Shown one piece after another: positions 32,165 to 59,041 of a stretch of DNA of 64,000 nucleotides. The stretch lies in NCBI GenBank assembly GCA_963662275.1, contig OY759316.1, forward strand, positions 1,152,001 to 1,216,000, given 5' to 3'. This DNA is from Candidatus Cloacimonadales bacterium. GTDB taxonomy: Bacteria > Cloacimonadota > Cloacimonadia > Cloacimonadales > DAONDQ01. How positions within the stretch are numbered: the first letter of the stretch is position 1; each line of letters begins with the position of its first letter. Below the pieces are notes generated by a model. That model searched no databases and was not told where the DNA came from. It saw only the letters and a list, made by a program, of their open reading frames with translations. A program made the position numbers and the translations under genes.

Positions 32165-33403
32165 ATGCGGGAAGTAAGAAAATTAGAAAAGAATCAACTA
32201 AAAGATGCACTGAGTATTGCTGCAAAAGCTTATCCCATGATGGGATTAACATCTGAGTTAAAACTACAGGAATTTGAAACAAGAATACTGGAGGATTTCA
32301 ACCAGGAATCCGGTACATGGTATGGGCTTTTTGAAGATAGTATCTTACTGGGTTGCATGATATTGTATGACTTTGTAATTAACTATTATGGTCATGAGAT
32401 CAAAGCAAAGGGCATTGGGGCAGTGGCTGTGGAATTCCTGCATAAGAAGCAGAAAGTATGCAAGGAACTGCTGCACTGGTATTTGGAATATTCTCTTAAG
32501 CAGAAATATCCCCTTGCCATGCTGTATGCTTTCAAACCGGAGTTTTATTATAAAATGGGATTTGGATATGGTACAACCTGCTATAATTATGTTACCAAGC
32601 CCAATCTGATACCTAAATCAAATGAAAACTATAAGATGGATTATCTCAATCAATCTGATGTCGATGATATCTTGGCTTTTTATCATGAGATTTATCAAGG
32701 CATTCATGGAATGACCCCGAGAAAAGAGAAGAATATTGCTGCTTTATTAAAGACTCCCGGCTTGTATTTTGTCTGCTATCGGGAACAAGAAAAACTGACC
32801 GCATTATTGGTTTTTCGCCTGATATCAAATGATTCTACTAACAATGAAACAGATATGGAATTAGACCTGCTATTTACAACTCCAATAGGACTTAAAGCTG
32901 CTATGAACTTCCTAAACAGTCAATCTGACCAGGTGAGACAGATATCCATTTCTACTTTATACAAAGATTTCTTCTATAATTTCGCAGATATCCGGCATAT
33001 TGATCATAAGGTATTAAAACAACCAGGCTATCATCATACTTATGATGCCGGCATGGGCATTATGTATAGAAGCTTAAACTCGATAGAATTAATCACAAAA
33101 AGACCAAGTACATTAGATAACATCAAAATCCGATTTATCCTCAATGATTCTTTTGTGGAAGACTGCCCAAAGGATTTCGTCATGGAATGGAAAGCAGGCA
33201 AAGCCAGTTTATCTAAAAGCAAGAAATACGACCTCGAACTCAAGTTTGATGTCTCTGATTTCTCTTCCTGGATTCTGAATGCAATTGATATCACGACTCT
33301 CTATCAATATGGGTTGGTGGAGATATCAGATAAGAAATATATTCCTTTCTTGGAGCAGGCTTTCTATTATCAGCAGAAACCTACCTGCCTGGAAAGATTT
33401 TAG
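32165..33403 (+). CDS. Eis-like GNAT acetyltransferase
   Basis: GIGAVAV, LYAFKPEFYYKMGFG, about 410 aa with an SCP2-like C-terminus ending ERF. Confidence 0.8.
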   Translation: MREVRKLEKNQLKDALSIAAKAYPMMGLTSELKLQEFETRILEDFNQESGTWYGLFEDSILLGCMILYDFVINYYGHEIKAKGIGAVAVEFLHKKQKVCKELLHWYLEYSLKQKYPLAMLYAFKPEFYYKMGFGYGTTCYNYVTKPNLIPKSNENYKMDYLNQSDVDDILAFYHEIYQGIHGMTPRKEKNIAALLKTPGLYFVCYREQEKLTALLVFRLISNDSTNNETDMELDLLFTTPIGLKAAMNFLNSQSDQVRQISISTLYKDFFYNFADIRHIDHKVLKQPGYHHTYDAGMGIMYRSLNSIELITKRPSTLDNIKIRFILNDSFVEDCPKDFVMEWKAGKASLSKSKKYDLELKFDVSDFSSWILNAIDITTLYQYGLVEISDKKYIPFLEQAFYYQQKPTCLERF

Positions 33404-33622
33404 TCGTAGCACCTACTTCAGGAGGTAAATAATCGTAGCACTTACTTCAGTGGGTAATGTTTTTTGTGGCTACTGCTTCAGCATGTGGGTAATGTTCTTT
33501 AAGTCATTGTCGGCTCATTACAAAACAAGATAAATCATGTTGCCAAGTTACCTGAAGGAAACAACCACCAGATACTAAAACATCCTGAAATATGCGCTAC
33601 GTTACATCCTGAAGTAAGTAAT
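33404..33622. repeat. REP-like cluster (gtagc..tacttcag / ctgaa..gctac)
   Basis: Three direct units followed by inverted units between convergent genes. Confidence 0.55.
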
Positions 33623-33670
33623 ACACCTCACTGGTGCCTGATACCTGGGTTGTGTAGCAATAGTACATAT

Positions 33671-34474
33671 TTACTCAATTTCTGCAGTTCTCAAAATACG
33701 GACAAGTTCCGACATCCCCTCCTTAAAATGACCAGAACTGAGATCAAACCATTGCAACTTACTCAAAACATGCTCTTCATGATTTGGTAGCAACTCCATA
33801 ATCTCGTTAAGATCAACTAGCGATACTAGCAAAATACTCTGTCGTTGTGATTTTTGTATCGTTCCAATTGAGTCGACTATTTCCTTAAGACAAAATGGGT
33901 TTTCAAAAAATGCTCTGTTGATCAGTAATAAAACGTAGCCATTTTGGATGAAATATTCTAAAGTCATTGCAATTGAGTTAATCCAATCAGATTTTGTATG
34001 ATTATCGTGATTGTAATAGATACTAAAACCTTCATGAGAGAGGTAATCAATTATTTGATGGGCTATTTCGATATCTTGATTTGAGTAGGATAGAAATATG
34101 GTTGCACGTTTTGATAAGCGAGTGAGTTTGTATTGTTCGAACTGAAGACCTCTTTCTAGATTAATTGTTTCAACAACCTTTCCTTCCTTTTCCATCGACT
34201 TTACTAAGTTCATTTCTCTCATAACAGACTTAGAACTCTGAGCATCTGGACTATCACAGATTAAAAACCATTCACGAGCTCTGATTTCACGTTCAATAAG
34301 TTTCCAAAGCAATTCATCATCTGATTCTGTATCCTCCATGCATTTGAGGTAGAATAATACAGGGTTGTGACCTAAACTTTCAAGTTCGTTTCTTATCTCA
34401 CGAACCTTCTCAATATCCTTATTTGAATGAGAAACGAATATCCAAGCTCCTGAACCATTGTTTGGTGTATTCAT
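33671..34474 (-). CDS. Tandem TIR-TIR domain protein
   Basis: WIFVSHSNKD...VMRE and IFLSYSNQD...FCLKE. Confidence 0.8.
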   Translation of the reverse strand: MNTPNNGSGAWIFVSHSNKDIEKVREIRNELESLGHNPVLFYLKCMEDTESDDELLWKLIEREIRAREWFLICDSPDAQSSKSVMREMNLVKSMEKEGKVVETINLERGLQFEQYKLTRLSKRATIFLSYSNQDIEIAHQIIDYLSHEGFSIYYNHDNHTKSDWINSIAMTLEYFIQNGYVLLLINRAFFENPFCLKEIVDSIGTIQKSQRQSILLVSLVDLNEIMELLPNHEEHVLSKLQWFDLSSGHFKEGMSELVRILRTAEIE

Positions 34475-34520
34475 TTCAAATCTCCAATATCTTCACTAAA
34501 ACATATCCTGCCTAACTATC

Positions 34521-34775
34521 TTACAAAAAAAAAGGACGGCATTTGTTGATTTCATCCAGGCATAGCTTCAGTGTTTCTTTGCGAGTATTCTGTTCTTCAT
34601 TAATCCCCCAGCGCAAATCTACTTCAGTCAATTCCACATGTCGTTCTCTGCAGAAGCTACGCAGTTCCGGCCAACAGTGGCTCATGAGTTCATTACGCTC
34701 TTCCATCATATCACGGAAGGTGGAAGAGACAAAGATACGGATACTACGGTTATCGGATTTCAGGTTATCTGGCAT
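34521..34775 (-). pseudogene. Truncated DUF4062-domain gene
   Basis: IRIFVSSTFRDMMEER..VDLRWG..CLDEINKCRPFF, then a stop after a T9 run; the LLGxRYG motif is missing. Confidence 0.75.
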
Positions 34776-34799
34776 ATTGCCCTCCTTCAATGAATCGTA

Positions 34800-37556
34800 T
34801 TATTTCGGCTGAACAATCACAGTAACCTGCTCGGGGTTTTCCTTTATTTCAACTTGGAGTTTTGCCTTATCCTCTGTCGGTTTCTTAGATGTTGTAAGAT
34901 TAACCTCTTTTACCTTCTCTACTGTATAACCAGCTTCTGAAAGGAATTTAGGGATATTTTTCACTATTATTCTATCTTTATCCTTTTCTTCCTTAGAAAG
35001 TTCCGTTCTTCCCATCCTGGCAGCAATCCAAGGTTCAATGCCAGCCCATTCCTCCTCACTCATCACCCGCCAGGGAAGGAGGCAATTGTGATATAGTTTT
35101 TCCTCGTCTCTTACTTTGTTATATACCCAACCTCGACTGAGTTTGGATAAGCACCAGCGCCAGTGTTCCTTTTCTGCAAGAAACTCGATTTCTTCTTTGC
35201 TAAGACTAATGGATTTCTGATTAGCACGGGCTGGATAGAGAATGTAGCCAATTGATCGCAATTTCTCCACAATATCCTTCACATTTTGACGATTCTCTAT
35301 CTTGAAATCTTCTTTTAAACCTTCATAATCTTCGTTTGCCTTCGCTGAATTCACATTTGCACGATATACCGTGTGAACGCTTGCAGCAAGCTTTTCGAGC
35401 AATTCGTCCTTCAGCACCGGAGCTTGCACCAAAGCCAGGAACTCACGTCCATTCACATGGATATTCAATTGTTCTTCAGGAGGGAGGCAAGAACGCTCAT
35501 AATAGCCTTTTCCGTTTAATAAGCTGGAAGAAATGATAGACTCAATAGAACGTACCCCATGTTTATATTCGGAAATACAGAGAAAAGCATGAAGAACACC
35601 TGGATCGATCTTGACCTTATCAGTCTTTCCTTCCCGTTGAACGATCTTGGGTGCATGCCTGGTCAGTAATTCGCGAAGCAATATAGCTCTTCTAATGATA
35701 TAGTGAGAATCAGGAATGCCGTTCGTTGATAGAGGATTTGGACCAATAATATTGAGAAAGCCATGCAGACGACTTACGAAGTCAGGTCCTTTGACATTAC
35801 GGAATTCAGTGTTTGCTCTGCCTTTATCGAACTCAGTGATAGAACTTGCAGTACCACCTGCAAATACAAAGACAGCTTTACCGATATGATGAGTGACCTG
35901 TCCATCCTGGAATTCGCCATCCTGCATTGGGGAAAGAAAATAGCGAAGCCATTCTTTATCACCTGTGTCAAACTCATCCCAGAATACAAGAGGAATCTTT
36001 CCTGCCAATCCTATATCACGTACCTGGTGAAGTGCGCCTACCAATTCAGAAGAATCTCCAAACTGGGAGATATTAAAGGTGATATCGACTATTTTATCTT
36101 TCGCTATGGCACGTGCCACTTGTTTCACACCGAAAGATTTACCAGCACCAGGAGGTCCAAAGACAGCTAAACACAGGGGGCGATGTTTCGGTTCGCTGAC
36201 ATATTGCTTTATCAGGGCACTGATGCTTTGATATCCCTCGATTTCTCGACGATCTGCTGTTACAAAATCATTGAATATTCCTAAAGGTACATTCTTAAGT
36301 GCTGACTTGTATCCATCTGTCACAATCTGTTCAGCAATGGTTTCAAGACTGGGTTTGTCTTCGTCACCCAATACACCAGGCTGATCATACATCTCATCGA
36401 GAATTGTCCAGGTTCCGCTCCGATAACCAATTGGCAGGTGTAGAGGATCGAGATTCCTGACAGGATTCTGTACTTTAACTACAGATAAGTTCTCTTCGTT
36501 ATCTATCTGGGATGCTATCAAGTCTAATGGAAATACAGGTGGAGTGAGCTTGTCATTGCTTTTCTGCGGACCAAATCCTTCTTTTTGCAGATTTCTCATG
36601 GCATTCACACCACAACAGATCGCTGCGTTTAAGTCCGGAGCAGAGGATTTCATAAGCTCATTAACAACAGAAGCAGTTAAACAAACAGTATAACCTATCA
36701 TCATACCTGGATAGGGTTTTGCCCAAGTACCTTCATAATAATTTGGATCAAAGAATAACAGGCAATCCCAATCTTCAGGCTTGTTCTTCTTCAAAAGCAA
36801 GGCACCTTCCGGTCCGATGGAAACAATGACATAAGCACATTCAGACAAGCTGCTTACACATGGATTGTGGGTTAGTTCCCAAAACAAATCCTGAGCCATT
36901 CTCTCCCAGGAAAGTTCTCTGCTCACGTGGATGGAAGTACGGCGTAAATCTGTGAGTGTGAGTACCGCGATGGTTCGATCAGCATGATGTTTAACGATAT
37001 GATGCCATATTTTACCTTCTTTCATTTCCGCAACAGGACTGGCAGATTTGACAATAATCCAGCTTGGCTTTTTACCTTTTTGAATGGCTTTGGGCCATAA
37101 CTCCTGGTGATCTCTAAATCCTAAACCTGCATCATCAATAATGACAATATCTGCGGTTTCCGGGTTTTCGACAGGGGCAGTTATCTCACATGTATCTGGC
37201 GTATCACCGCCACAGAAACTGTCTAATCCAATGAATTCTGCAACTCTCCATACGAGATTATCCTTGTCTTTATCAGTCTTGTCTGAAGGTTCCCAAATGG
37301 CATAGGAATGATGGACTCTATGGTCATTGGGTAGCAGCGGTGTTGAAGGAAGTTCACTCTTTATTAAATGTATATCCATTCCCTTACTGGATTTGATTTC
37401 CTCAATCAAATCACTCAGCATGGCTGCACCACCAGATTGTAAACATGCCCGTGAAGTATCCACAGCATTCCATGCCTGACCACCGGTCTTTCCCTTCTTA
37501 ATCCGTGCAATGTTCCAATCTGCTGTGACATCACCCGTTATGATAATGTGTTTCAT
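34800..37556 (-). CDS. Multidomain protein: PfkB/ribokinase-like N-terminus, P-loop AAA-like ATPase, C-terminal RyR domain
   Basis: IIITGDVTADW..GGAA; GPPGAGKS, LVFWDEFD; LAEKEHWRW..GWVY..RD..HNCLLPW..EKDKDR. Confidence 0.75.
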   Translation of the reverse strand: MKHIIITGDVTADWNIARIKKGKTGGQAWNAVDTSRACLQSGGAAMLSDLIEEIKSSKGMDIHLIKSELPSTPLLPNDHRVHHSYAIWEPSDKTDKDKDNLVWRVAEFIGLDSFCGGDTPDTCEITAPVENPETADIVIIDDAGLGFRDHQELWPKAIQKGKKPSWIIVKSASPVAEMKEGKIWHHIVKHHADRTIAVLTLTDLRRTSIHVSRELSWERMAQDLFWELTHNPCVSSLSECAYVIVSIGPEGALLLKKNKPEDWDCLLFFDPNYYEGTWAKPYPGMMIGYTVCLTASVVNELMKSSAPDLNAAICCGVNAMRNLQKEGFGPQKSNDKLTPPVFPLDLIASQIDNEENLSVVKVQNPVRNLDPLHLPIGYRSGTWTILDEMYDQPGVLGDEDKPSLETIAEQIVTDGYKSALKNVPLGIFNDFVTADRREIEGYQSISALIKQYVSEPKHRPLCLAVFGPPGAGKSFGVKQVARAIAKDKIVDITFNISQFGDSSELVGALHQVRDIGLAGKIPLVFWDEFDTGDKEWLRYFLSPMQDGEFQDGQVTHHIGKAVFVFAGGTASSITEFDKGRANTEFRNVKGPDFVSRLHGFLNIIGPNPLSTNGIPDSHYIIRRAILLRELLTRHAPKIVQREGKTDKVKIDPGVLHAFLCISEYKHGVRSIESIISSSLLNGKGYYERSCLPPEEQLNIHVNGREFLALVQAPVLKDELLEKLAASVHTVYRANVNSAKANEDYEGLKEDFKIENRQNVKDIVEKLRSIGYILYPARANQKSISLSKEEIEFLAEKEHWRWCLSKLSRGWVYNKVRDEEKLYHNCLLPWRVMSEEEWAGIEPWIAARMGRTELSKEEKDKDRIIVKNIPKFLSEAGYTVEKVKEVNLTTSKKPTEDKAKLQVEIKENPEQVTVIVQPK

Positions 37557-40500
37557 AATTGCTCCTTATAGCTATATCCATTAGAGTTAAGCAACTCGAT
37601 TATCTTTCTATATTCCTGAATATCTTTAGGAGAGAAAGACATCTCCATCTTTTTCATATCATGAATAATACCCGCTACTTTCAGATAATCATCTAGATAA
37701 TCGTTCATATTATGTTTTCTCTTAAACTGAGCGATTTTATAAAGATAAATCCATAAATCCCTTTGCCATTCTGCATTAGAAGAGTCTCTTTTAACCAATT
37801 TTTCAATAATTCTAAGAGCTGCTTTTTTATGATTCAATGCATATGAGACTTTATTCTGGCTCTCATAGATTTCGCTTGTTATTTCATAAAAAACAGATAA
37901 ATCCCTCTGATATTCTGTATTTCTTTTGCTAAATATAATTAGCTTTTTGATAATTTTCTTTGCAATTTTTAATTCAGATAAAGAATCAGTTAAGTTCCCC
38001 TTTTCAAGGAATATTTCGCCCAACCTTCCATGAATGAGTGCTAAATCATAAAGAGAATTGGGATTATCAGGAAAAGATGTAACCAAATTATCCCTAATTT
38101 TCATACATTCATGATATATTTCAAGAGCTTCTGATAGACTACTTCTGCCTAGTTCTTGGTGGATTCCGCCTATTTTCATATATAATACAGATAAACCTCG
38201 TTGCCAATCTGCATTCTTTATATCATACTTGAGAAGATTTTCATAGATCTTAATACCTGCTTGGTATTTGTTTTGCGCTTGACGGAGTTTTCCTTCTGCT
38301 CTTAGGACATCTCCCAATTTCTCGTAACTAATACATAGTCGCTTCTGCCAGGTAGTATTATCTGGTTCAGAATCCGTTAATCTAATCATTATTTTCAAAC
38401 TAAGCTCATAATCCTCATGTGCTCTGGCATGTTTACCCTGTTGAAGATAGATTTCACCTATATTTTGGAGCCAGTCAGATAGGTCACATTGCACTACTAA
38501 GTTATCAGGTTCAATTTCTGTAATATCCCGAATTATTTCTATAAACTCTTGGTATTCAGTCAGTGCAGCAGGTAAATTACCTTCTTTCCTAAATACTATT
38601 CCAACAAATTGATGGCTGATTGCTAAATTCTTCTTATATTCTATATTTTTAGGATCTAAATCAAATAATGTTTTTGCTATCGATAATCCTTCCTGAAATT
38701 CTTGTAAGGATTTTTGTAATTTTTCTTGTCTTAAAAAACATTTGCCAACTCTATTAAAGCTGATACATAGATCGGATTTGTACTGTAGACTATCGGATTC
38801 AGATTTTGCTAATTGCTTAGCAATCATGAGACCCTTCTGATGTTCTTTTAGAGCGTCTTTTAGGTTATTTTGATATTCATAAATATCCCCTATGTTTTGA
38901 TAGCTTACTGATAACTCGAAAAGGAATTTGTTTTCATTCGGATTAGATGCTACAAGTTCACTTCTTAATTTCTCACTCTCCTTACAATCATTTAGAGCTT
39001 TATTAGTATATCCCAAAGCCCAGTGTATTTTCCCAAGACGATCATAAACAACTGCTGAAAATCTTTGCCTCTTAGTACTATCTTGAGCTTTCTTCATTTG
39101 TATTAATTCTCTGAGGACACTTTCAAGTATTACTTCTCGTATTTTGAATCTGCCAGTATGATTTAGAACATCATCAAGGTCTTGCAGGAATAATTTGTAC
39201 AAATTATAATACATATCCTCCGATTTAAGCTTTTGATCTAATAATTCACAAACCCAGTACAAAGATAGATTATCTGAACAAGTTTCACCAGATAGCAAGT
39301 AATCCAGAAGTGTTTTAAGGGAAGCATCATTGCTTTGTTCGGGTTGGGATCCACTTAAGTATTCTGCAGCTCTTTTCTTATCATCTGCTGCAATTAAATG
39401 CCACATAGTCTCGCTGACATGAATAGGATCGTCGCTTTTCAGCCTTAAAAGGTGGTCGCAAATCAAAGAATGCAGAGCTTTATTCATTTCAGTATCTGAT
39501 TGAATAAGATTCAAGACTTTCTGGATATGATATACAGCAGCTTCCTGCATCTGCTGATGCATAAATTTCCATCTTCCACTACTTCCGCTTTGGATTAATT
39601 GTCCTCGCAAACCACGTCGAATTACTGCAAACTTCAATGGATCCCAAACGATAGACAGAGAATCTGAAAAAAGCACTTTAGCTGCATTTGGAAGCATGGT
39701 TTCAAAATCCATCTCCCGCCAACCTTGACGACTGACAGCAACCAAAGATACAATAGATGCAACCCATTCTGTTCCATAAGTCTTTTCTAAGCGAGTTAGT
39801 ATCCATTCATATAATGCGGATACATCTCCTGGCACATTATTCGCAAGATGTTCAGAAGGATCATAACCAGCTTTGTTAGCCAATGAATAATCATCTTCGT
39901 CCAATAAATTCAATTGCTCTAAGGCAAGGCTCAACCAAAGAGGATTCATAAAAGCTTTTTCTTCTTTAAAATCAAGCTTTGTTAGAATAATAGATTTTGC
40001 TCCAAAACTTACTTTACGGTGATAACGTTCATATATAGCAGTGATAATTTCTACAGCATTTTTTTCTGTAAGACCTTCAAGTTCAAATTCTAAAACTCCT
40101 GCCCATTGAGCTAAGCCATCTGCCGCTTCTCCTTCTATTGCAGTTGCGATGATCCTTGCATTCAGAGGCCAGGGACGTTTCAGCCAGGTCATGTGCAAAC
40201 CACGGGTAGTAGGATTAAACTGATTCAAGGCATCGATTAGTACCACCACACGCTTTTTCACAGAAGAACGACTCAGTAACGATGCGAAAGTATTATCTAA
40301 ATCTTCTTCTGTATATTTCTCAGATAGTGGATTGGTAATTTCCAAGAATGATGAAAGCTCTGTTATCCACCTGAGGAGCATGGAATCTACATCACCGGAC
40401 TGCGGAGTGATCCCTGCTGCATGGGATAAGTGAAGGATACTTTCATCTTGTTCAAATTCACGATACAGCTTAGCAAAGAGAGCGCTTTTTCCTGTCCCCG

Positions 40501-41401
40501 GTCCGGCAGTGATACATGCTCCCCAATCTGCTCCTTCCTTTGCTTCAGAGTATGCAAAAGTGCGGAGTTCGGAGAGAATATCTTCACGTCCTACAAAGTT
40601 CCTGCTGCGATCTTGAACGAAGTCTTCAATTGCCTGTCTTTCTTCTTCTTCCCAGGATTTGGGGACTTTCTGTTCAATATCTTTGGTCTCTTCATCCAGA
40701 ATCTTCCAGATCTCTCCTTGTACCCAAACACCCCAATCTTTCAGACTTGTTTCTGTGATATGCTCAGTTTGCTCATCCCATTCCAAAGTATATGGTCGTA
40801 CCTGCTTACAAAGCACAGGGTCATCCATAATCTTCTGTTTGAGAGCTTTAAGGTTTTTTGCTTTCTCACTTGCATTCACTTCTTTTGAATACTCTTCACT
40901 GTAGTCTTCTGCCTTTTCCTTAGGCATTCTAGCATAGGGGAGAGGTTTACGAAAGAGGAAAAGGGAATTGGTACGCAGCCATGGATCTTTTTTAATCAGA
41001 CCATACTCAATTTCGAGAGCCGTGACACTTTTCCCTTCTACTTCAAACTGAAAGCCTTTTTCATTTGCTGCAGCTTCCAACCGCTGTTTGGGAGGTGTCC
41101 AGCCATAGCGGTCACCGAGAAGCACTATTAATAGCGGACGGCTTTTATCTATTTCATCCAGGCATACTTTCAAGGTTAGAAGCTCACGTGCTTCAATATC
41201 TATTTCATTCGCAACTTCCACACCTTGTCTGAGGTCGATGGGCTCGAGTAAGACATGCCGTGCCCTCAAGCGTTCTGCCAGTTCAGGGAAGACAACCTTG
41301 TTGAGATGATCTCTTTCTGCCTGCATATCTTTGAATGTGGAGCTTAAGAAAACAGGACGGGATACCCAGGAAGTAAACGTGGAAGCTTCTTTCTCACTCA
41401 T
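37553..41401 (-). CDS. DUF4062 + STAND/NACHT-like NTPase + TPR repeats
   Basis: VFLSSTFKDMQAER..DLRQG..LLGDRYGW..SVTALEIEYG; GPGTGKS, VLIDALNQ; repeated WQRxLxxxY TPRs. Confidence 0.88.
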   Translation of the reverse strand: MSEKEASTFTSWVSRPVFLSSTFKDMQAERDHLNKVVFPELAERLRARHVLLEPIDLRQGVEVANEIDIEARELLTLKVCLDEIDKSRPLLIVLLGDRYGWTPPKQRLEAAANEKGFQFEVEGKSVTALEIEYGLIKKDPWLRTNSLFLFRKPLPYARMPKEKAEDYSEEYSKEVNASEKAKNLKALKQKIMDDPVLCKQVRPYTLEWDEQTEHITETSLKDWGVWVQGEIWKILDEETKDIEQKVPKSWEEEERQAIEDFVQDRSRNFVGREDILSELRTFAYSEAKEGADWGACITAGPGTGKSALFAKLYREFEQDESILHLSHAAGITPQSGDVDSMLLRWITELSSFLEITNPLSEKYTEEDLDNTFASLLSRSSVKKRVVVLIDALNQFNPTTRGLHMTWLKRPWPLNARIIATAIEGEAADGLAQWAGVLEFELEGLTEKNAVEIITAIYERYHRKVSFGAKSIILTKLDFKEEKAFMNPLWLSLALEQLNLLDEDDYSLANKAGYDPSEHLANNVPGDVSALYEWILTRLEKTYGTEWVASIVSLVAVSRQGWREMDFETMLPNAAKVLFSDSLSIVWDPLKFAVIRRGLRGQLIQSGSSGRWKFMHQQMQEAAVYHIQKVLNLIQSDTEMNKALHSLICDHLLRLKSDDPIHVSETMWHLIAADDKKRAAEYLSGSQPEQSNDASLKTLLDYLLSGETCSDNLSLYWVCELLDQKLKSEDMYYNLYKLFLQDLDDVLNHTGRFKIREVILESVLRELIQMKKAQDSTKRQRFSAVVYDRLGKIHWALGYTNKALNDCKESEKLRSELVASNPNENKFLFELSVSYQNIGDIYEYQNNLKDALKEHQKGLMIAKQLAKSESDSLQYKSDLCISFNRVGKCFLRQEKLQKSLQEFQEGLSIAKTLFDLDPKNIEYKKNLAISHQFVGIVFRKEGNLPAALTEYQEFIEIIRDITEIEPDNLVVQCDLSDWLQNIGEIYLQQGKHARAHEDYELSLKIMIRLTDSEPDNTTWQKRLCISYEKLGDVLRAEGKLRQAQNKYQAGIKIYENLLKYDIKNADWQRGLSVLYMKIGGIHQELGRSSLSEALEIYHECMKIRDNLVTSFPDNPNSLYDLALIHGRLGEIFLEKGNLTDSLSELKIAKKIIKKLIIFSKRNTEYQRDLSVFYEITSEIYESQNKVSYALNHKKAALRIIEKLVKRDSSNAEWQRDLWIYLYKIAQFKRKHNMNDYLDDYLKVAGIIHDMKKMEMSFSPKDIQEYRKIIELLNSNGYSYKEQL

Positions 41402-41474: not shown

Positions 41475-41606
41475 GATTCAGTAAGATCGGAATCTTACTC
41501 CACGACTTCTGAATGAATATTTATTGATTCAGTAAGATCGGAATCTTACTCCACGACTTCTGAATGAATATTTATTGATTCAGTAAGATCGGAATCTTAC
41601 TCCACA
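41475..41606. repeat. 51-bp tandem repeat (~2.6 units) of a REP-like hairpin
   Basis: Units at 41475, 41526, 41577; agtaagat-cgga-atcttact hairpin; identical intervening sequence. Confidence 0.9.
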
Positions 41607-56667: not shown

Positions 56668-57138
56668 ATGGATAATACAAGTTTAGATTTTAACTCCCGG
56701 AAGCATGACGTTTTGAGTAAAGCAGTAATAAATCAATTCGTTCCAAAGTTTATGCCGGATGCGGTTTTAGTTTATTCCACTCTAGCAATTGATTCTCCTG
56801 AGCTCGATAAAAATCTTCAAGTTAAGTTATGTATTCCAACTGACAATTCTCAGACATTACCTGATATTATTTTATATAAATCTGATTCCAACTGGCTAGT
56901 ATTAATCGATTTGATTACCAAGCATGGAACAATGGATAGTAATCGATGCAATGAACTGATTGAAGTGTTTAAAGATACTCCTGCAGAATTGGTTTTGGTA
57001 AATGCATATCGTAATAAAAAGGAAATGAATGAGTCTCAAACTGATTTAGCCTGGGGAACAAATGCCTGGTTTGCCGAAGAACCGGAACATATGATACATT
57101 TTGATGGAAATCACGTTGTAGAACCGTACAAGAAGTGA
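56668..57138 (+). CDS. Stand-alone BsuBI/PstI restriction-endonuclease C-terminal domain
   Basis: H..L.KAVI..FVPKF, LPDIILY, WLVLIDLITKHG, AWGTNAWFAEEPEHMIHFDG. Confidence 0.75.
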   Translation: MDNTSLDFNSRKHDVLSKAVINQFVPKFMPDAVLVYSTLAIDSPELDKNLQVKLCIPTDNSQTLPDIILYKSDSNWLVLIDLITKHGTMDSNRCNELIEVFKDTPAELVLVNAYRNKKEMNESQTDLAWGTNAWFAEEPEHMIHFDGNHVVEPYKK

Positions 57139-57294
57139 CTATTCAGTAATTTCTTCTTTTTTACTTCTTGACGTTTTTTTCCTATAGTTCGATTTGTTTA
57201 AAAATTCTTTTGATAGATTTACAGGCAATGAATATGATATAAAATCGGTGGGAGGATAAAATGCAGTTCATTACAATCAATAATCTTAATCACA

Positions 57295-58242
57295 ATGAGT
57301 ATAAAAATGAAGAAAACTAAAGATCAGGTCAGCGAACAGGAGCCAAGCTTAAAGTCGTATTATGTCGCTCCCAATATATCCAAGAAATTGGCTATAGGAA
57401 GCAAAAGAATCTGTGATTGCGGTCCGACAAATATCAATTGCATGACTCCTAAGGAATGGATGAAATCCCAAATCGGTGTTTGGCAATTTACCTATGATAA
57501 ACGTGATGTTAGAGATAAAACAGTTCATCCTGCTACGTTTCCTATTAATTTATCGAACAAGATTGTTAGTTTATTTACCCATAGAGGTCAGCTTGTCATT
57601 GATCCTTTTGTTGGAAGTGGAACTACCATGCTTTCATGTTTAGAATTACATCGTAATTGTGTCGGTTTTGATTTAAATGAAGCCTATATCGAAGTCTGTC
57701 GAACAAGAGTAGCCCAAGAGCTTTCTTTTTCAGATACAAAACAGATTGGAATATGCAATGATGCTCGTAATATCAATCAATATATTGAAGATAATACCGT
57801 GAGTTTAGTCTGGACATCTCCTCCATACGCTAATCTTCTCAATCGTAAAAGACAAAACAAATCACGCAGAGACAGGCTGAATGATCAATTTGATAAGGTG
57901 GAGCAATACTCACAGGATGAAAGAGATTTAGGAACCTATGATATTGAGAAATGGACAAAGGAAATGGGAGATATCTTTGAAGCTCTATTGCCTCTAATGA
58001 AAACAAAAGCTCATTGTGTCATTAATGTACCTGATTTTTGGTGGGAGAATAAGAGGATAGTTCTGCATGTTTTCCTGATTGAAGAATTGCATAGAAGAGG
58101 TTTTGAACTTCGTAACACGATTATCTGGGATAGAACCAATATCGTCAATAATATTGGCATCTTCGGTTGGCCTAGTAATTACATCACCATGGGAACTACT
58201 TTTGAATATCTTTTAGATTTTTGGAAACCACCCAAATCCTGA
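57295..58242 (+). CDS. Amino-type DNA methyltransferase (likely m4C)
   Basis: HPATFP, DPFVGSGTT, TSPPY. Confidence 0.88.
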   Translation: MSIKMKKTKDQVSEQEPSLKSYYVAPNISKKLAIGSKRICDCGPTNINCMTPKEWMKSQIGVWQFTYDKRDVRDKTVHPATFPINLSNKIVSLFTHRGQLVIDPFVGSGTTMLSCLELHRNCVGFDLNEAYIEVCRTRVAQELSFSDTKQIGICNDARNINQYIEDNTVSLVWTSPPYANLLNRKRQNKSRRDRLNDQFDKVEQYSQDERDLGTYDIEKWTKEMGDIFEALLPLMKTKAHCVINVPDFWWENKRIVLHVFLIEELHRRGFELRNTIIWDRTNIVNNIGIFGWPSNYITMGTTFEYLLDFWKPPKS

Positions 58243-58255
58243 TAAAGGAGCTTGC

Positions 58256-59041
58256 ATGTTAGAAGTCTATTCTAAAGAAGAGATTATTGCAAAGCTGAAA
58301 GAGATTAAAAACCTGGGCTGGGTTAAGAATACCAGGCAAGGGAATGACGGCTCAGTTGGTAATATGCTAGAAGATTTACTCGGTATTCCTGAGAATAACT
58401 TTGCCGTTGCTAATTCAGGTGAATGGGAAATCAAAGCCAAAAGAAAGAATTCTTCATCGTTAATGACACTCCTACATAATGAACCATCTCCCAGGAATGC
58501 AGACCTCGTTTCTAAATTACTTTTACCATGTTATGGCTGGAAACACCAACAAGCTGGAATTAAATATCCAGAACATGAAATGAGTTTTCGGCAGACGATA
58601 TATTGTAAAAGATACAGCGACAGAGGTTTTACGGTTTTATTAGATAGGAAAGAAGAAAAGATAACTATCAAATTCGATTACACAAAGGTTGATGAACGTC
58701 ATTCGGTATGGTTAAATGAAGTTAAAAATAGAATTGGTTTAGCAGATATTAATCCTGTTCCGTATTGGGGCTTTCGTGATGTCGGGGCACATATCGGAGC
58801 AAAGCTAATCAATTGCTTTTATGTAGCTGCTGAAGTGAAGAAAGAAGATGGGCAAGAGTATTTCCAATATTCTGATATAAAGATGCTCAGTACTTTCTCA
58901 TTAGAAAAATTCATTGATGCCCTTGAACATGATCTGATCTATGTGGATTTCGATGCCAGAACCGGTCATAATCATGGTACTAAATTTAGAATCAAAGAGA
59001 ATTATATCCATTTGCTGTATGCGAATGTGAGGGAGATATAG
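58256..59041 (+). CDS. MvaI/BcnI family restriction endonuclease
   Basis: [37 protein letters not shown]. Confidence 0.85.

Follow-up and report, generated by a model that had tools for sequence, protein, structure and literature searches.

Gene linkage and domain content suggest an NAD+-centred, Thoeris-like defence module with a candidate RyR receptor in a Candidatus Cloacimonadales genome

Thoeris systems combine a TIR protein, ThsB, with a ligand-activated effector and are divided into types I-XI; the parts of the survey drawn on here give 29 predicted effector types, report SLATT as validated (type VII) and exclude TIRs found in Avs proteins (10.64898/2025.12.03.692087). DUF4062 ('NIR'), a TIR-like NADase, is the effector of Avs2, for example PsAvs2 (10.64898/2026.09.04.749371), and is also found in other NLR-like proteins with C-terminal repeats; these DUF4062 proteins deplete nicotinamide adenine dinucleotide (NAD+) upon phage sensing (10.64898/2026.09.04.749371, 10.64898/2026.05.01.722283). 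NLR-type NADases are described as working alone, and NLR-like STAND proteins with TIR or DUF4062 as enriched near defence genes (10.64898/2026.09.04.749371). RyR (PF02026) proteins of phages bind or cleave 2'/3'-cyclic ADP-ribose (2'/3'-cADPR) (10.64898/2026.05.28.727677, 10.64898/2026.06.04.730250). Here we describe a cluster of four open reading frames (ORFs), A to D, in which genes related to all of these lie side by side. It is located in a 64,000-nucleotide (nt) stretch of a Candidatus Cloacimonadales bacterium (GCA_963662275.1, contig OY759316.1, positions 1,152,001 to 1,216,000; hereafter the window), the genome of which is one complete contig of 4.38 Mb.

All four ORFs are co-oriented on the minus strand (Table 1). 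The stop codon of A and the start codon of B overlap as ATGA, and gaps of 9 nt (B-C) and 46 nt (C-D) follow, an arrangement that an earlier note on this DNA had described and that is present as given there. Hydrophobic segments of membrane-spanning type were absent from all four proteins (0/4). The domains, folds, conserved residues, gene linkage and accessory status reported below are direct observations. On balance the evidence leans, if modestly, towards an NAD+-centred, Thoeris-like defence module, with B responding to an ADP-ribose (ADPR)-derived product. By analogy with published relatives, from which the NADase activity of DUF4062 and the cADPR binding of RyR are taken, a phage component would be recognised by the TPR array of A, oligomerisation would fall to its STAND NTPase and cleavage of NAD+ to its N-terminal DUF4062 (NIR) domain; D would be a second NAD+-consuming or signal-making enzyme. 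The pair of RyR repeats in B is predicted to bind an ADP-ribose-derived product, either ADPR itself or an isomer of cADPR, made by the adjacent TIR/DUF4062 enzymes. This binding would switch the AAA+ ring and the ribokinase-fold domain of B, and the latter may bind or phosphorylate a ribose-containing molecule. We infer the ligand binding of B, its downstream action and the anti-phage role of the module. Such a Thoeris-like logic fits because B is consistently linked to genes with NAD-cleaving domains, B is fused to a SLOG-like domain in some loci, RyR recurs on varied outputs, and the residues that contact cADPR are kept.

Table 1. Positions of the cluster and its parts, numbered from the first letter of the window.
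Feature	Position	Strand	Description
Gene A	41401-37553	-	1282 amino acids (aa); DUF4062 (predicted NIR-type, TIR-like NADase)-STAND NTPase-TPR; probable NLR/Avs-like sensor-effector
A, DUF4062	41000-41353	-	Residues 17-134; Ser-Val-Thr-x-Leu-Glu segment (Glu130), then Glu-Tyr
A, P-loop core of STAND NTPase	40196-40600	-	Residues 268-402
A, TPR array	37592-39034	-	Residues ~790-1270; presumed sensor
Gene B	37556-34800	-	918 aa; ribokinase/PfkB-fold domain-AAA+ ATPase-two tandem RyR repeats
B, ribokinase/PfkB-like fold	36522-37556	-	Residues 1-345; structure model and Foldseek
B, AAA+ module	35457-36239	-	Residues ~440-700; structure model, Foldseek and conservation
B, RyR repeat 1	35187-35414	-	Residues 715-790; degenerate
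B, RyR repeat 2	34917-35186	-	Residues 791-880; keeps RyR Tad ligand-contact residues
ORF C	34790-34521	-	89 aa; apparent 5' remnant of a second DUF4062-STAND gene
Gene D	34474-33671	-	267 aa; tandem TIR protein
D, TIR1			Residues ~10-110 (Glu87)
D, TIR2			Residues ~124-258 (Glu198)
Upstream REP-like array	41475-41605		51-nt unit x2.6, hairpin core in each
Downstream short repeats	33401-33624		~28-nt unit, differs from upstream unit

The earlier reading of B as a PfkB-like/AAA/RyR protein proved right, with PfkB recognised by fold only, AAA+ by fold and RyR by Pfam. In Pfam, B matched RyR (E 9.5e-10; 39 bits against a cut-off of 27.4) and, weakly, P-loop families. At E 0.001 its family comprised at least 925 proteins out of 8000 candidates scored, with 42-65% identity over most of the length among the 120 listed. 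They come from Chloroflexota, Acidobacteriota, Armatimonadota, Bacillota, Planctomycetota and an archaeon, and are named in databases only as 'RyR domain-containing protein' or 'ATPase'. Conservation was counted in an alignment of 52 family sequences (mean column identity 44%). The model of the N-terminal domain (predicted local distance difference test, pLDDT, 89.6; predicted template modelling score, pTM, 0.92) had as its top Foldseek match the pseudouridine kinase 7c1y (E 1.1e-9, probability 1.00, TM about 0.5), other matches being ribokinases and a nucleoside kinase (E 1e-9 to 1e-7), tagatose-6-phosphate kinase and ketohexokinase. Residues G8, D9, D13, W14 and G43 were invariant (52/52), and the Gly-Asp...Asp-Trp and Gly-Gly segments aligned with PfkB substrate-binding motifs; Pfam PF00294 (PfkB) did not match B, and no sequence family fitted this domain. 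The AAA+ module (pLDDT 89.5) matched ClpB in Foldseek (E 2.5e-7), then, more weakly, NtrC1, Skd3 and dynein. Its base-plus-lid fold was accompanied by a full set of Walker A, Walker B and Arg residues: the Walker A Gly-Lys-Ser, Walker B Glu528 and Asp530 and the Arg622-Arg623 pair were invariant, and Asp527 was present in 51/52 sequences. The ATPase is apparently competent.

The profile of the B family matched RyR2 in four stretches (E 4.6e-24), and B itself carries two tandem repeats. Contact residues have been given as His75, Trp78, His100 and Asp117 in RyDEP (10.64898/2026.05.28.727677) and as H129, W132, K147, H154, K170 and D171 in RyR Tad (10.64898/2026.06.04.730250). The RyR Tad protein gp68 (NC_048653) aligned to the profile of B repeat 2 (E 4.8e-12), which placed its H129, W132, K147 and H154 on His798, Trp801, Arg816 and His823 of B; K170/D171 correspond to Lys860/Asp861 by motif, past a loop insertion, the printed alignment ending at gp68 residue 170. 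Among the 52 family members, His798 was found in all 52, Trp801 in 49, Lys860 in 47 and Asp861 in 49. A tblastn search of 50,697 phage records with the RyR region of B gave one weak match (E 7e-4). In viral collections the sole B-family match, on a viral contig (L101, 7001-7900), covered the AAA+ part alone (residues 423-707, 38% identity).

The same residues bear on an alternative that we regard as unlikely, in which B does not serve as receptor or effector but scavenges the signal or regulates negatively. Basal cADPR-type molecules would be bound or cleaved by its RyR part, and ADPR would be modified by its kinase fold, which would prevent autoimmunity caused by the neighbouring NADases or deny phages the ADPR needed to rebuild NAD+. 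RyDEP, the founding RyR enzyme, is a glycosidase with a His/Asp dyad (10.64898/2026.05.28.727677), and the equivalents of this dyad, His798 and Asp861, are kept in B. Precedents exist in Vesta VstB and Metis MisB, accessory enzymes dispensable for defence that limit toxicity (10.64898/2026.09.04.749371). Two further points speak for a scavenger and against a receptor-effector: Pfam and Foldseek found no known killing or toxic domain in B, and B may be dispensable because NLR-type NADases are known to work alone. However, sponge-type RyR proteins have the same residues and no catalysis (10.64898/2026.05.28.727677), so that little can be read from the dyad; moreover, the presence of RyR on channel-like and RelA/SpoT proteins (see below) suits a sensor better, and scavenging would leave the AAA+ motor unexplained.

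Gene A was borne out by Pfam as a DUF4062-STAND-TPR protein, with an N-terminal DUF4062 (residues 17-131, E 4.9e-13), a central STAND NTPase (NPHP3_N at 25.5 bits, just above its cut-off of 24.8; AAA_16 at 30.6 bits and E 5.8e-7, under its cut-off of 32.6) and C-terminal repeats matched by many TPR families (TPR_12, E 1.5e-17; TPR_2, E 8.4e-18). An alignment of 22 DUF4062 N-termini showed that A keeps the Ser-Val-Thr-x-Leu-Glu catalytic segment. In the whole genome, only A and C matched DUF4062. No named Avs family model of PADLOC 2023 fitted A, which gave only a weak generic TPR match (E 3e-4). The proposal that a TPR sensor activates separate nucleotide-processing effectors did not hold as worded, since in STAND proteins of this kind the NADase effector is DUF4062 itself. 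A thus probably combines sensor and effector in one protein and does not need to activate other enzymes; it is a new member of the recently reported DUF4062 NLR-like class. Full-length homologues of A (38% identity over 1130-1260 aa) were found beside B homologues in two other loci, L060 and L009, and in L060 the homologue stood at position -1 of B, the same upstream place as here. The G+C content of A was 0.33-0.37 in its TPR-coding 3' part (37592-39500) against 0.40-0.43 in its 5' part (39500-41401), the latter like gene B (0.40-0.43), a contrast that would fit recombinational exchange of the sensor region.

Linkage of B to NADase genes was assessed in 92 loci with B homologues, comprising 12 genome loci and the best 80 of 265 confirmed metagenome loci; many end at contig edges, and 43 were well flanked, with at least two ORFs on each side of B. 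By Pfam, 7 of the 12 genome loci had a TIR or DUF4062 gene adjoining B. In most of these genes the domain is joined to an NTPase of NACHT, NB-ARC or NPHP3 type that also bears TPR or WD40 repeats, and one more of the 12 loci encoded a NACHT protein without TIR or DUF4062. Within three ORFs of B, TIR or DUF4062 was found in 37/92 loci (27/43 well-flanked), a SLOG-like domain of ~185 aa in 39/92 (17/43) and further RyR proteins in 17/92 (10/43); the TIR, DUF4062 and SLOG-like counts come from hidden Markov models (HMMs) built from and iterated on these same loci, so they are not independent, and Pfam checks of the HMM-based counts covered subsets only, which lessens their weight for the module. 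The 918-aa gene is thus paired with TIR/DUF4062-STAND genes elsewhere as well. TIR/DUF4062 genes accounted for 23/152 ORFs at position 1 from B, 25/203 at positions 2-3, 8/155 at positions 4-6 and 0/52 at position 7 or beyond, and SLOG-like genes for 25/152, 7/203, 1/155 and 1/52, respectively. The density of linked genes thus drops with distance from B, and 73 of the 98 linked genes lie on its strand. In L007/L049, a two-gene cassette of a TIR-propeller gene and B sits between housekeeping genes for redox enzymes.

The SLOG-like domain stood alone in 30 loci and was attached to the C-terminal end of B in 9; it also makes up the N-terminal part of proteins of ~550-600 aa that carry SLATT/DUF4231 two-helix membrane domains. 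Its assignment to SLOG is at lead level, with Pfam YpsA/YAcAr at E 0.006-0.03 in 2-3 of 16 members, only a nucleoside deoxyribosyltransferase among PDB profiles (E 0.13), YspA clusters of the Atlas at 0.88-0.89, and no hhalign match to the TIR and DUF4062 alignments. Pfam offers no dedicated model for the domain (L040:2744-3307 and 42 other proteins), which in an Atlas structure search was fused to NUDIX hydrolases in other clusters.

Additional RyR proteins accompany B homologues. Proteins of ~580-800 aa that begin with hydrophobic segments (one to three, in most cases two) and also carry TrkA_N/RCK and a C-terminal RyR lie beside B homologues and TIR genes; these two-transmembrane (2TM)-TrkA_N(RCK)-RyR channel-like proteins were seen in L026, L027, L062, L073, L078, L079, L086, L087 and L097. 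Near other B homologues we observed an 845-aa RelA/SpoT-SLOG-RyR protein (L092:963-3500, minus strand), the RelA/SpoT part of which matches the PADLOC candidate system PDC-S33 (E 1.8e-18), and a RelA/SpoT-TPR protein (L098:4868-6628, minus strand). RyR appears to be a shared sensor on different outputs, because it recurs in these neighbourhoods on B, on the channel-like proteins and on the RelA/SpoT-SLOG-RyR protein. TrkA_N/RCK and RelA/SpoT partners would suit a housekeeping second-messenger circuit of nucleotides (RyR, SLOG-like, TrkA, SLATT), for example an ion-flux or stress response driven by NAD-derived or alarmone ligands and not directed at phages, as would the metabolic and transport genes that neighbour the cluster in the window. 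We consider this the least probable of the explanations weighed here. The spread of B is patchy and transfer-like, full-length copies being found in 0/40 relatives yet with 42-65% identity across phyla; the genes paired with it encode NLR-like STAND proteins with TIR or DUF4062, a class that published work reports as enriched in the vicinity of defence genes; and SLATT is a validated Thoeris type VII effector domain (10.64898/2025.12.03.692087).

ORF C, which had been taken for a third, DUF4062 gene, turned out to be an 89-aa stump that ends before the catalytic motif. It has a TTG start and an internal ATG at 34775 (84 aa from there) preceded by GGAGG. C matched only positions 1-56 of the 82 of the DUF4062 profile (Pfam E 7.4e-9), was 47% identical to residues 17-92 of A over 76 aa and stopped there, in a T-run; in the alignment of 22 N-termini it lacked the Ser-Val-Thr-x-Leu-Glu segment. 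Its best matches (at most 57% identity) were the N-termini of DUF4062-STAND proteins of at least 745 aa that adjoin B homologues. A frameshift extending C was considered and rejected, as no other frame continues it. Given the partial profile, the stop at the equivalent of A residue 92, the missing catalytic segment and the lack of a continuing frame, C is, to judge from its sequence, a truncated remnant of a second DUF4062-STAND gene and not a whole gene.

Gene D was confirmed as a TIR-TIR protein by Pfam TIR_2, which matched in two stretches (E 3.2e-23). The operon therewith contains a TIR with candidate catalytic glutamates, Glu198 by a weak alignment to the conserved Glu of a TLR TIR (E 0.034) and Glu87 by motif only; PADLOC returned weak ThsB-like matches. 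The D family numbered 229 proteins, those listed being mostly ~250-300 aa. The genome's third TIR_2 match lies outside the window (C1:1518040-1518366), in an 817-aa open frame (E 8e-19). At the C-D junction the G+C content falls from about 0.42 to 0.36, the value of D. The simplest history would start from a second DUF4062-STAND gene downstream of B, later truncated and replaced by D; the recruitment of D probably accompanied the decay of that gene to the stump C.

The cluster appears to be of an accessory, patchy and horizontally acquired type. It is held to be accessory because full-length B was found in 0/40 relatives, two of which matched the RyR part only, and D in 0/231 other genomes of the phylum. 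A search of the single congener for the two flanking genes found neither, hence that comparison sets no insertion limits. Run on the four genes and on partner genes of related loci, PADLOC 2023 fitted no named defence system to the cluster, in agreement with the earlier note; NCBIfam likewise gave nothing above its cut-offs. No ThsA or other effector model matched B, which has an RyR part with conserved contact residues. Among 34 other ORFs of the window, PADLOC found only a type II restriction-modification (R-M) system besides ABC-type and enzyme look-alikes. This R-M block (56668-59041, plus strand), ~15 kb from the cluster, consists of a 156-aa Vsr-like/REase-type ORF, a methyltransferase and a restriction enzyme (MTase_II, E 1.4e-131; REase_II, E 1.2e-90).

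Several further observations weigh against the favoured module. In the N-terminal domain of B the Asp-Thr-x-Gly-Ala-Gly-Asp signature is not recognisable and the PfkB profile match is weak (hhalign 31%); in the segment ahead of the equivalent helix, Gly284 and Gly288 are invariant and Tyr289 takes the site expected for Asp, an equivalence that is uncertain at this hhalign probability (31%). The domain may be a mere binding module and not a kinase. RyR repeat 1 is degenerate in sequence, with an invariant His728, Tyr/Phe in place of Trp and Asn755 in place of Asp, and in repeat 2 His823 is present in 34/52 family members and replaced by Asn in 18/52. With the query used, no SLOG-like domain was found in the window or the rest of the genome, and the window has neither the SLOG-like nor the SLATT genes common at other B loci. 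Nor does the window amount to a dense defence island, and D, with one weak match in the 92 B loci, is not a recurrent partner of B. An immune module, as the earlier note proposed, is made plausible by the immune-type NAD/nucleotide domains, the accessory status and the recurrent pairing of B; the ideas of a dense defence island and of D as recurrent partner found no support.

A further explanation is chance stacking, in which A and D are separate single-gene NADase defences and B is an unrelated accessory ATPase that happens to lie in the same variable region. In its favour, nothing equivalent to D adjoins the other B genes, C is a sign of gene decay and replacement, the G+C content differs among parts of the cluster, and 26/92 B loci (7/43 well-flanked) have no linked family within three ORFs, a count that also speaks against the module itself. 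We nevertheless hold stacking to be very unlikely. A and B share the ATGA overlap and are adjacent as orthologues in L060 and L009, the density of linked families decays with distance and most linked genes are co-oriented with B, and the SLOG-like domain is fused to B in several loci.

The repeats that flank the cluster, described earlier as REP clusters on both sides, differ from each other. The upstream array is REP-like, because its 27-nt core has 59 genome matches at up to 3 mismatches against 0 for a reversed control; larger tandem clusters of this hairpin core occur elsewhere in the genome, for example at C1:2028117-2028491 and C1:644346-645518. Downstream lies a different short repeat, three copies of which occupy 33401-33488 with inverted partners at 33580-33624. 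A scan for promoters and terminators gave the same counts as in shuffled sequences. Contigs from 4 DNA sequencing runs, a second sample among them, had identical sequence including the C-D junction, and none was a variant with an intact second DUF4062-STAND gene; the joints listed for these contigs, which have short sides and are located at REP copies, were set aside.

A full-text search, with term searches in PMC9503650, PMC7159879, 10.64898/2026.10.19.760177 and the parts of 10.64898/2025.12.03.692087 drawn on here, found no description of the B family or of a host RyR protein in such a system; Burroughs et al. 2015 and Table S1 of 10.64898/2025.12.03.692087 lay outside that search. The pairing of A or TIR genes with B is plausibly a variant of NAD-based defence with a candidate new type of receptor. 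If B responds to TIR/DUF4062 products, it would add to NAD-based bacterial immunity both a receptor type and an output type, the latter pairing an AAA+ motor and a ribokinase-fold domain; a function would be assigned to its large family, shared across many phyla, and NLR-like NADases, so far seen as single-gene systems, would have a conserved partner. It would also account for the origin of the phage RyR-type anti-Thoeris proteins and offer a bacterial test system for whether RyR repeats naturally sense cyclic ADP-ribose. More tentatively, and with considerable doubt, host RyR repeats could be a previously unrecognised receptor class for ADP-ribose signals made by TIR/NIR enzymes, gating B and, in related loci, the 2TM-RCK channel-like proteins. 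Were this true, phage RyR sponges would be captured host receptors, and the animal pairing of cADPR with the ryanodine receptor would descend from a bacterial immune signalling pair.

Compared with ribokinase/PfkB kinases (7c1y, ribokinase, nucleoside kinase), the N-terminal domain of B shares the overall fold and the N-terminal substrate-binding motifs, but differs in ~100 extra residues, in the absence of a Pfam PfkB match and in having no recognisable GAGD. With the phage proteins RyDEP (an anti-Thoeris glycosidase) and RyR Tad (a sponge), B shares PF02026 and the contact residues of repeat 2, and like the animal RyR Repeat12 (R12) it carries two repeats per chain. Unlike the phage proteins, B is host-encoded and adjoins NAD-cleaving genes, and unlike both these and R12 it joins its repeats, the ligand binding of which is a prediction, to a kinase-fold domain and an AAA+ ATPase. 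Gene A resembles Avs/NLR-like STAND proteins with a DUF4062 effector, such as PsAvs2 (10.64898/2026.09.04.749371), in its DUF4062 with Glu, STAND and repeats; Swarozyc, Evangelion and Vulcan are related single-gene systems named alongside Avs2. In contrast to these systems, A matches no Avs model of PADLOC 2023 and is coupled in translation to B, which the parts of the sources drawn on here do not describe as a partner of such systems.

The differences from Thoeris lie in the candidate receptor, an RyR/R12 domain so far described only in phage counter-defence proteins; in the partner B, a PfkB-fold/AAA+ protein without a known killing domain; in the NAD-cleaving genes, mostly NLR-like STAND fusions of a class left out of 10.64898/2025.12.03.692087; and in the PADLOC result, with weak ThsB-like matches and none to an effector. 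As in Thoeris, the distribution is accessory and patchy, related B loci carry SLATT (the type VII effector domain) and SLOG-like parts (the type I sensor fold), and a TIR gene shares an operon with a protein bearing a domain known elsewhere to bind TIR-made cADPR isomers.

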